Shown here one piece after another: positions 23,779 through 25,020 of a stretch of 40,512 nucleotides of DNA. This stretch comes from a virus (Duplodnaviria > Heunggongvirae > Uroviricota > Caudoviricetes): the IMG/VR virus record IMGVR_UViG_2917875804_000001. One strand, given 5' to 3'. Below the pieces are notes generated by a model. That model searched no databases and was not told the DNA's origin. It saw nothing but the letters and a program-made list of their open reading frames with translations. The position numbers were made by a program, and so were the translations under genes. How positions within the stretch are numbered: position 1 is the stretch's first letter; each line of letters starts with the position of its first letter.

Positions 23779-23994
23779 TGTTTCGCCGCCGACGAAAGGC
23801 CGGGACGCTAATGATTAAAAACTTACGTGGGAAATATTGTTATAAACAGTCAACTCAAAATAACTAAAAAATCTTATAACTAAGCGAATGGCCTTCAAAA
23901 GCCGATCCATGCAACTTGCATAAAACGATCTTTATCAATGAGTTACATGTGTGGTTAAATACCATGCTTTAAGGACTAAGAGCATTACCAGCAG

Positions 23995-24799
23995 ATGACA
24001 GAAAAAGATAACATTGGTAAGTTAATTTGGCATATTGCTTGCGATGAATCTGGCATTGATGGGCAACGTTTCTACGGCTTTGGCAGTCTGTGGATGAAGT
24101 ACCAACGCCGTGGGGATTTCTGTCAACTAATCAGAGAACTACGCAGCAAACATGGTTTTTTTGAAGAAATAAAATGGCAAAAAGCCCATTCAAAAAGATA
24201 CTCTGAATTTTATCTTGAGCTGATCGACTTATTCTTTAGAGTTCCTTGGCTAGCTTTTCATTGTATCGTGGTTGAAAAATCAATAGTAAATAAGGCATTT
24301 CATAATGGGGATTATGACCTGGCAAGGAGAAAGCACTTCACAAATCTCATTACCACAAAAATTAGCTCTGTAATTTCTGCACACCCTGAAAGAGACAGTT
24401 ACTTCAGGATTGAAGTTGATCCTATCGCATCTCGTTATAAAAAAGGCCGATGAAGAACTAAATGTTATTGCCAATAACATATTGAATAGAAAATTTGGTC
24501 GTAAAGGGATAATCAGCAGTGTAGTGACAAAAGACTCTAAAGCATCTGAAAACATTCAGCTAGCCGATTTTTTCTTAGGTGCGGTTATGTGCGCATATCA
24601 AGGAAAAGCTTCATCTGAAGCCAAAATAAGAGTATCAAACTATGTTGCTTCATATTTAGGCTGGGATCACTTGCAATATGATACATGGCACACTGAGAGA
24701 AAATTTAATATCTGGTATTTTTATGATAAAACTCGAGGGCCACGAGATATAGAAACTCAAAATGTTAGCTTAAAGTATCCACTTCCCCAAAAGAAATAG
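23995..24799 (+). CDS. DUF3800-like protein (N-terminal ...IACDESG... motif), split by a +1 frame change at an A-run near 24439-24444; antisense moron in the Q-S slot
   Basis: ORF-track pieces 23995..24453 and 24410..24799 overlap in adjacent frames; one A fewer in the run makes a single ORF of about 265 aa. AT-rich relative to flanks. Confidence 0.6.
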
Positions 24800-25020
24800 A
24801 CGTCGACCTCTCAGCCGACACGGTTGGAGTCCCAGACCAATTATCGAGTCGAAGTTACCAACTTGGCGGTTATCTTTTGGGAGCCGCCCCTTCATTCCCA
24901 AAACCTTTATTGCAGAAAAATCTATATCCTGGAAATTGGATAGTCAACCCTTACGACACCTACGAACAGTTGCACATACAACATTGGCAAAATATCAGAT
25001 TTACACGGAATATATGCCTT

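Follow-up and report, generated by a model that had tools for sequence, protein, structure and literature searches.

The spacer between the late antiterminator gene Q and the lysis gene S of lambdoid phages is a known hotspot for morons, dispensable and compositionally foreign genes lying between genes that are adjacent in relatives, such as stx in the Shiga toxin (Stx) phages and nmpC in DLP12, and cargo of the same kind occupies the hotspots of P2 (old/tin and fun(Z)). In phage λ this region is the source of 6S RNA, known since 1971, which continues to the terminator tR' at +195. Northern blots revealed 6S species of ~194 and ~121 nt, which are bound by Hfq and present in lysogens, with no function assigned to them. 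The promoter pR' fires constitutively, and leader RNAs made from it can act as functional small RNAs; StxS, the short pR' leader RNA of Stx phages, was reported to share no sequence with 6S. A second line of background concerns DUF3800, a domain that accompanies retrons (as effector of type VII) and clustered regularly interspaced short palindromic repeats (CRISPR) loci, where it is found in TPR-DUF3800 proteins next to Cas12a2/Cas12a3 and in Csx32 of the Cas13 CASK loci. In addition, Weinberg et al. (2017) described the DUF3800-I to -XI, drum and skipping-rope motifs as structured RNAs lying beside DUF3800 genes, on either strand and often with a 3' terminator. Both lines meet in a lambdoid prophage contained in a DNA stretch of 40,512 nucleotides (IMG/VR record IMGVR_UViG_2917875804_000001; hereafter the window), whose Q-to-holin spacer (23779-25020) carries an inserted unit of ~1.17 kb made of a DUF3800 gene and a λ 6S-like small RNA gene. 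That such a gene is an annotated family member (“DUF3800 domain-containing protein” elsewhere) in a known moron hotspot, and that DUF3800 genes keep company with non-coding RNAs (ncRNAs), was known already; the gene-plus-RNA module and its kinship with λ 6S RNA are new.

Anatomy and distribution of the inserted module

The late genes of the prophage lie on the minus strand. Q (25021..25710, minus) is of the phage-82 type, matching Pfam PF06323 (Phage_antiter_Q) with an E-value of 8.3e-95 and the Q gene of phage 82 (X92588) with 97.5% DNA identity, and the first lysis gene met by late transcription past the module encodes a holin (23461..23778, minus; PF16083, Phage_holin_3_3, E 8e-22), the counterpart of which is likewise annotated as holin in relatives. 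The spacer between the two genes measures 1242 bp. PhiR47_2, whose Q and holin are the same, has a spacer of 309 bp, and λ one of 676 bp. When the window was aligned to PhiR47_2 and E. coli SCU-301, homology to PhiR47_2 was lost near 24985, towards Q, and regained near 23812, towards the holin gene, delimiting an inserted module of ~1173 bp (23813..24985) with a guanine-plus-cytosine (GC) content of 0.378. The GC trough (0.355-0.38) extends across 23800-24800, the window as a whole having 50.4%. The module is ordered as the promoter of the DUF3800 gene, the gene itself (23995..24799, plus strand, disrupted in this copy) and then the convergent RNA gene with the promoter of the RNA. Being extra DNA between genes adjacent in a relative, provided with a promoter and a terminator of its own and deviating in composition, the insert is a phage moron. 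This agrees with an earlier note on this DNA, which had recognized an expanded spacer of about 1.2 kb carrying an AT-rich gene on the opposite strand (GC of the open reading frame, ORF, 36.8%) and had pointed out that late transcription from the Q side must run antisense through it, as indeed follows from the gene lying on the plus strand and Q, holin and the late promoter sites on the minus strand. The note counted a single gene in the spacer, besides the late promoter and terminator, and thereby overlooked the structured RNA gene on the minus strand (24790..24912) and the presence of two promoter-like sites on that strand.

The association of the two parts was followed in 69 loci collected from IMG/VR (individual loci are designated here by L numbers), with DUF3800 homologues 48-100% identical. 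The RNA was found in the same place and orientation at every one of these loci with enough 3' flank, with the sole exception of L046, and in genomes of the GTDB it stood beside the gene in 13/13 Enterobacterales and Gilliamella loci. In the assessed phage loci of Enterobacterales and Pasteurellaceae the DUF3800 gene is thus always accompanied by the 6S-like RNA, L046 apart, meaning that the unit is a two-part module and not one gene. The pair occurs in very different surroundings: behind a λ-type Q (L019, L022), behind an 82-type Q (the window and many E. coli genomes), behind a P22/21-type Q (L045, L047, L053, L061), after the tail gene D of P2-like Pasteurellaceae phages (PHL101, L063, L066, L072), in the portal-side hotspot of P2 (Chuche, L042) and after umuDC (L033). 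Intact copies in the same slot are represented by 44 full-length matches in a set of 5426 complete E. coli genomes (~1%), and strains SCU-301 (NZ_CP051751) and CFSAN018748 (NZ_CP028192) are examples of carriers of an intact allele. PhiR47_2 and P2 lack the gene and also lack the RNA (best score 13 bits with the covariance model described below, filters off), which rejects the RNA as a generic part of the 82-type or P2 backbone and indicates that in these backbones it arrives with the gene. Judged from this distribution, the ~1.17-kb unit is a mobile gene-plus-RNA module.

The insert shares with the Q-to-S morons and with the cargo of the P2 hotspots its position between genes that are adjacent in relatives, its foreign composition and its dispensability, and P2-like phages do carry DUF3800 homologues beside the portal gene and after gpD. 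It differs from stx, which is co-oriented with late transcription, in that the DUF3800 gene opposes it, and from the Q-to-S morons in general in bringing its own small RNA gene.

Some loci present additional features. In L019-L021 the late strand carries a tRNA-like sequence between DUF3800 and the lysis genes, at ~120-200 nt upstream of the start of DUF3800; it resembles the tRNA genes present downstream of pR' in Stx phages. In two P2-like Pasteurellaceae loci (L063 and L066) a conserved ORF of 232-293 amino acids (aa), at 3275-3973 and 3061-3942, respectively, lies immediately upstream of and co-oriented with DUF3800, possibly as one more accessory gene, or a partner gene, of this lineage. 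The homologues of L206, L210, L214, L215 and L216 (Colwellia, Psychromonas, Vibrio cincinnatiensis and Ferrimonas), which are 65-68% identical, are followed by attC-like sites, and the arrays of such sites at cassette spacing around them make these genes look like integron cassettes.

The small RNA and its kinship with λ 6S RNA

The RNA gene spans ~120 nt on the minus strand and its predicted fold comprises five helices. Stem a (24903-24896 with 24882-24875; UUUUGGGA/UCCCAAAA) and stem b (24888-24884 with 24869-24865; GGCGG/CCGCC) interleave to give an H-type pseudoknot, whereas stem c (24862-24858 with 24827-24823; GUUGG/CCAAC) encloses the short stem d (24850-24848 with 24837-24835). The terminator scan identified the last element, hairpin e (24821-24800), with 9 bp and a GAGA tetraloop of the GNRA type, which is followed by a U-rich tract (24799-24790; CUAUUUCUUU). 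This tract overlaps the DUF3800 stop codon, of which its first three bases are the complement.

The evidence for this fold comes from covariation. Among 28 distinct sequences aligned by MAFFT without reference to a structure, 91.1% of cells were paired, against 79.5% in shuffled alignments, with 15 pairs changed on both sides and none of 500 shuffles reaching the observed value; sliding the partner by 1-3 columns, as a control, lowered pairing to 31-56%. A model-fitted alignment of 41 distinct sequences gave 88.3% against 69.9%, and RNAalifold recovered stems b, c and e unaided. Stem a illustrates the compensating changes well, reading CACAAAG/CUUUGUG, AUUGAGAUG/CAUCUCAAU or UCCAGGU/GUCUGGA in other lineages and UGGUAGUGAG/CUUACUACCG in λ. 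Hairpin e contains two invariant G-U/U-G pairs that would be A-C mismatches on the opposite strand; as they form only on the minus-strand RNA, the RNA must be read from the side of the late promoter.

A covariance model (CM) built for the RNA, R1, matched the window at 24790-24909 with 109.6 bits (E 1.6e-29) and found one match per locus in 68 phage-derived loci plus the window, always antisense to the gene and abutting its stop codon, with no extra copies in 613 kb. The same model matched λ with 84.8 bits. The ~115 nt that follow the DUF3800 stop codon are 77% identical to the stretch after the DUF3800 gene of the P2-like phage Chuche, whose protein is itself 64% identical, and 74% identical to part of the pR'-tR' region of λ. 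The kinship with λ was beyond the sensitivity of a BLAST search of the phage collection with the leader region, which found only Chuche and five Salmonella phages and missed λ. The homology covers nt ~+20 to +127 of 6S with the same stems, and stems a and e differ between λ and the window by compensating changes. By sequence and predicted structure, therefore, the RNA of the window and the 5' ~127 nt of λ 6S RNA are homologous, and the former would, like 6S and the pR' leader RNAs, be promoter-proximal and terminated without Q. In λ hairpin e ends at +127, and the ~121-nt species of 6S is compatible with an end near this hairpin.

The two RNAs also differ in several respects. The RNA of the window is tied to a DUF3800 gene, occurs as well in P2-like phages without Q, and ends at hairpin e with a U tract, while that of λ continues to tR'. 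The U-rich tail is present after hairpin e in 85/99 copies linked to DUF3800, where it is encoded by the Lys-rich last codons of the gene, and in 0/92 orphan copies, that is, copies without the gene; only the linked version is a self-contained terminator. Hairpin e and the U tract would in this case form the intrinsic terminator of the small RNA, equivalent to tR'. Another difference is the separate promoter, a putative sigma-70-type promoter (TTGACT, 17-nt spacer, TAGATT; 24919..24947, minus) located downstream of the presumed pR'. A promoter-like site is seen 25-36 nt before stem b in most lineages, the P2-like ones included, with scores of at least 9 in 35% of cases against 4% of background windows. 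The probable true late promoter, of the 82 type (TTGCAA, 17-nt spacer, TATATT; 25009..25037, minus), was found in the same promoter scan and overlaps the end of Q. It lies within the stretch common to PhiR47_2, which has the same Q and no insert, and we infer it to be the Q82-responsive pR'. The promoter-like and terminator-like sites given by the scans stand where they would be expected for a late-leader RNA made from a constitutive promoter by Q and ended by an intrinsic terminator that Q overrides.

When the window was compared with Rfam 15, at gathering score for its whole length and at E ≤ 10 for 23400-25200, the spacer remained without matches, the only ones being C4, isrK and tRNA outside of it, and 20 distant DUF3800 loci gave no Rfam match either. 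The RNA resembles the motifs of Weinberg et al. in being structured, conserved on the strand opposite to an adjacent DUF3800 gene and ended by a Rho-independent terminator. Yet it matches no model of the Rfam library, which has at least DUF3800-I and DUF3800-IX. Set apart from these Rfam models, it appears to be an additional class of DUF3800-associated RNA, and no earlier class had a link with a classical phage RNA.

A different leader architecture is seen in a group of loci with ~65% identity (L047-L057, L071 and L074) behind a P22/21-type Q. In these, stem a is shortened to CAGGG/CCCUG and directly flanks stem b, and a strong intrinsic terminator (AAACCCGCC...GCGGGTTTTTT) stands before the RNA, with a promoter ~70 nt further upstream.

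The DUF3800 gene and its product

As read, the gene is represented by two overlapping ORFs of the plus strand (23995-24453 and 24410-24799), which become one ORF of 267 aa when one A is removed from the run at 24439-24444. The repaired protein matches Pfam PF12686 over residues 16-197 with 42.7 bits (gathering cut-off 21; E 1.2e-10), phrog_3732 from end to end (E 6e-137) and, over residues 13-243, the PADLOC candidate family PDC-M04A (PDLC04353; E 7.7e-35). The domain search thus bears out the assignment to DUF3800 that the earlier note had made from an IACDESG motif, which corresponds to the “DE” of the family. Residues D17, E18, D142, Q188 and D191 are invariant among 64 homologues (52-87% identity), with D17-E18 in CDESG and Q188-L-A-D191 representing the N-terminal DE and the C-terminal QxxD motifs that Mestre et al. 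(2020) reported in the family. No match to a validated system was obtained in the PADLOC scan of the repaired protein, nor any match in the NCBIfam scan, and phmmer and profile searches of the PDB sequences returned no meaningful match.

An AlphaFold2 model was made for an intact homologue 99% identical to the repaired protein, with a mean predicted local distance difference test (pLDDT) score of 91 and a predicted template modelling score (pTM) of 0.90. Its top fold matches are RNase HII/H2A (archaeal RNase HII 1EKE/1IO2 and human RNase H2A 3PUF), with template modelling scores (TM-scores) of only 0.4-0.5. According to the model the protein is of RNase H-like fold, closest to the type 2 enzymes, in line with the RNase H2-like fold predicted for the family. 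It differs from the type 2 enzymes in its extra C-terminal elements and in showing no relationship to them at the sequence level, the Pfam RNase_HII profile giving no match, so that it does not belong to their sequence family. We consider the protein most probably to be a nuclease, the substrates of which would be RNA or RNA:DNA. In relation to the DUF3800 proteins of retrons and CRISPR loci, it shares the DE and QxxD motifs and a score above the Pfam cut-off, and is distinct in being a stand-alone protein of 267 aa, borne by a prophage moron with no reverse transcriptase, TPR or CRISPR neighbour.

Upstream of the gene, a 40-nt block (23922..23961, plus) includes a -35 element TTATCA (23932-23937), a 17-nt spacer and an extended -10 element TGgTTAAAT (to 23960). 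Its conservation before the genes of homologues extends across different phage backbones and down to a protein identity of ~64%, and the block is probably the gene's own promoter. The same block, AAAACGATCTTTATCAA...TG(G/A)TTAAATA, occurs in L019-L022, L025, L028, L032, L042, L043, L047, L053 and L058. It is kept well beyond what the promoter hexamers need and has a GATC site and an ACATGT palindrome, so that operator function or a response to Dam methylation is conceivable.

Proposed working, alternative explanations and genomic context

We propose that the spacer was rebuilt by a mobile two-part module with distinct states in lysogeny and in lytic growth, in which the protein would be a nuclease accessory factor and the RNA an insulator, perhaps also a regulator or partner; to this interpretation as a whole we assign a probability of roughly 0.55. 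In the lysogen, pR' and the module promoter would fire constitutively and RNA polymerase would halt at hairpin e, with two consequences, the accumulation of the small RNA and the shielding of DUF3800 from antisense transcription, which would allow its expression from its own promoter. Upon induction, Q would render the polymerase terminator-resistant, hairpin e would be read through and the polymerase would cross DUF3800 antisense before reaching the holin gene. This crossing would shut DUF3800 down during the phage's own lytic growth. The DUF3800 protein would then be a lysogen-expressed accessory factor and a candidate for an anti-phage or exclusion function. A role in defence or exclusion is plausible, considering the PDC-M04A match, the dispensability of the gene, its occurrence in P2 hotspots, in the Q-to-S slot and in integron cassettes, and the company kept by DUF3800 elsewhere. 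As to the small RNA, it would serve as insulator, and the retention of the pseudoknot in backbones without Q suggests that it might be more than that, either a regulator antisense to the 3' end of the mRNA or a partner of the protein.

Several observations weigh against this interpretation. The copy of the window is frameshifted, and the choice between the two minus-strand promoters as pR' is itself inferred. PDC-M04 is only a candidate family, and a multi-gene one, for which no partner gene was seen among six neighbours in the window or among the small upstream ORFs of Chuche and PHL101; it is not mentioned in the literature found, which reports no experimentally shown function for any DUF3800 member and, where DUF3800 is mentioned, no defence phenotype. 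The minimum free energy of the single RNA sequence is no better than that of shuffled ones (z 0.12 for the minus strand and -1.02 for the plus strand), which leaves covariation as the sole support for the fold. In addition, both parts occur separately. A 20-nt pattern taken from the RNA has at least 121 copies in IMG/VR, of which 116 could be assessed, the other 5 being too short; DUF3800 follows right after in 22 and is missing in the remaining 94. Such frequency without the gene in λ-type phages means that the RNA has a life of its own. Conversely, the CM finds no RNA beside the homologues of Vibrio, Shewanella, Colwellia, Ferrimonas and Alteromonas (61-68% identity) or the more distant ones of Myxococcota and Acidobacteria, by which the RNA is rejected as a universal companion of DUF3800. 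Some of these homologues are plain integron cassettes. The protein, it follows from the loci without the RNA, does not universally need it. The idea of the RNA as more than an insulator is weakened by both the RNA-less homologues and the orphan RNAs.

The separate occurrence of the two parts is also what would be expected if the RNA were an ordinary lambdoid late leader and terminator, beside which DUF3800 inserts as in a safe harbour, both hitchhiking without functional coupling. The genomic setting of the pattern, with a λ-type Q upstream and holin and lysozyme genes downstream in 72 of the at least 121 matches, speaks for this view as well. Against it, the P2-like and post-umuDC sites, which have no Q or late leader, keep the full RNA beside genes that are 48-51% identical in protein, with the promoter and with the pseudoknot preserved by compensating changes, and the backbones that lack the gene lack the RNA too. 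Moreover, linked and orphan RNAs are separate lineages (53 and 32 unique sequences, respectively, none shared), with an identity between nearest linked and orphan sequences that averages 0.66-0.71 and reaches at most 0.90, and the linked lineage alone has the U tract encoded by the last codons of the gene. We thus regard the absence of coupling as rather unlikely. A tighter coupling, of the toxin-antitoxin (TA) kind, in which a toxic nuclease would be neutralized by the convergent RNA in an addiction or abortive-infection pair, seems unlikely. By analogy, the RNA could pair with the 3' end of the mRNA, as in type I systems (bsrG/SR4), or bind the protein, as in the type III system ToxIN. The locus has in common with such pairs a protein gene with a structured RNA, here presumably made constitutively, a convergent layout and 3' complementarity, given that the gene has no plus-strand terminator of its own and its mRNA would be complementary to the RNA. 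The repeated inactivation of the gene, the retron-associated, effector-type nature of DUF3800 and the known occurrence of DUF3800 genes beside ncRNAs on either strand point in the same direction. The resemblance is nevertheless one of layout only: the protein is no small membrane peptide, the RNA overlaps the coding region by only ~10 nt, integron-cassette homologues do without the RNA, and no tandem repeats were found in 23400-25200 except a 1.9-copy AT-rich 10-mer, which led to the rejection of a ToxIN-like type III system. Finally, it can be considered that the protein serves the phage's own biology by processing RNA:DNA hybrids or R-loops, replication primers or late transcripts, as RNA:DNA hybrids are the known substrates of the type 2 RNase H fold. 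A gene that is dispensable and patchy (~1% of E. coli genomes, and missing from the same backbone in PhiR47_2), opposed to late transcription, lodged in accessory hotspots and integron cassettes and tolerated in a broken state makes such a role improbable.

A different matter is the state of the copy in the window. Its A6 run (24439..24444, codons 150-151) has one A more than the intact alleles, the split that the earlier note had spotted, and no uninterrupted reading frame for the protein is found in the window. The frame that opens at 23995 stops at a premature TGA (24451-24453), and the remainder is in the +1 frame up to the TAG at 24797-24799, with no plausible start before M198. The break separates the invariant D142 from Q188xxD191, leaving a 152-aa product without part of the presumed active site. 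Rescue by -1 frameshifting on the A run, in the manner of dnaX, was rejected because a -1 slip leads into the wrong frame, the second part of the gene lying at +1 to the first; full-length protein could come only from a +1 slip, which would be rare. As read, this copy is inactive and only its RNA half can still work. If the frameshift is real, the gene is a decaying remnant, DUF3800 is not made and the spacer amounts to a long late leader with a working 6S-like RNA and terminator, a possibility to which we give slightly less than even odds. Disruption has in fact occurred independently in other copies, DUF3800 being split into 135 + 111 aa in L030 and 75 + 196 aa in L061 and truncated at the N terminus in L031, with the adjacent RNA intact in each. 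On the other hand, the cassette otherwise matches intact alleles at 99.6% identity, and the extra A is the sole uncompensated indel over the ~5 kb alignable with close relatives, so that any decay must be very recent, and indels in homopolymers are the commonest sequencing error. It is also possible, if somewhat doubtful, that the extra A is a homopolymer miscall of sequencing or assembly and the gene is intact in the real genome. The single-base difference is private to this sequence, as five A's are present in all 53 complete E. coli genomes that hold the stretch and in the near-identical IMG/VR copies. The ~5 kb comparable with close relatives show no other homopolymer indel, however, and the independent disruptions elsewhere indicate that real loss is not unusual. 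Since the remnant explanation concerns this copy only, it does not contradict the interpretation of the insert as a mobile two-part module.

As regards the remaining genomic context, the holin gene is followed by genes for lysozyme (23474..22998, minus) and Rz (23001..22558, minus). Between Rz and the terminase genes lie, on the minus strand, a DUF6979 ORF (22145-22570) and a KilA-N/ORF11CD3 ORF (21456-22136), the latter with a weak match to the PADLOC candidate PDC-S22 (E 1e-8). A second AT-rich trough (27200-28300, GC ~0.37) contains two ORFs of the plus strand (27578-27967 and 27855-28301), both antisense with respect to the early-right operon; they have no Pfam match, their position is taken by a hydrolase, recombinase or emrE gene in relatives, and they may be another moron. 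Directly upstream of an antirepressor-type ORF (Bro-N + P22_AR_C) are a C4 antisense RNA (74 bits) and isrK (61 bits), a set (29236-29422 and 28581-29111, both minus) that corresponds to a c4-ant immunity cassette of the P1/P7 or Gifsy-1 type within a lambdoid early region. The prophage end adjoins a tRNA-Thr(CGT) gene (39069-39144, minus) with a 387-aa ORF beside it (37891-39054, plus), which fits integration at thrW.

For the particular genome studied here the practical message is modest, as its gene is broken. In a broader perspective, DUF3800, a widespread RNase H-like domain recurrently found beside ncRNAs, retrons and CRISPR effectors, and λ 6S RNA, each without an assigned function, are joined in one conserved and horizontally mobile gene-plus-RNA unit that occurs in E. 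coli, Salmonella, Serratia and Pantoea as well as in phages of Pasteurellaceae. With intact alleles available in sequenced strains, both functions are open to study by standard λ/E. coli genetics. At its most speculative, and in our opinion very improbably, the λ 6S family could be the cognate RNA (antidote, regulator, guide or substrate) of phage-borne DUF3800 nucleases of RNase HII fold, within the module holding the nuclease in check or directing it, and the orphan copies in the late leaders of λ-type phages being relics or decoys against residents that carry DUF3800. If this were true, λ 6S RNA would gain its first function and a tractable E. coli model would be at hand for the pairings between DUF3800 and ncRNAs, which include at least 11 RNA motifs in addition to the retron and CRISPR associations. 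The module also refines the view of the Q-to-S hotspot, in that an insert can bring with it a terminator RNA doubling as tR'. With such an insert in place, antitermination by Q would turn on the lysis genes and silence the moron at once.

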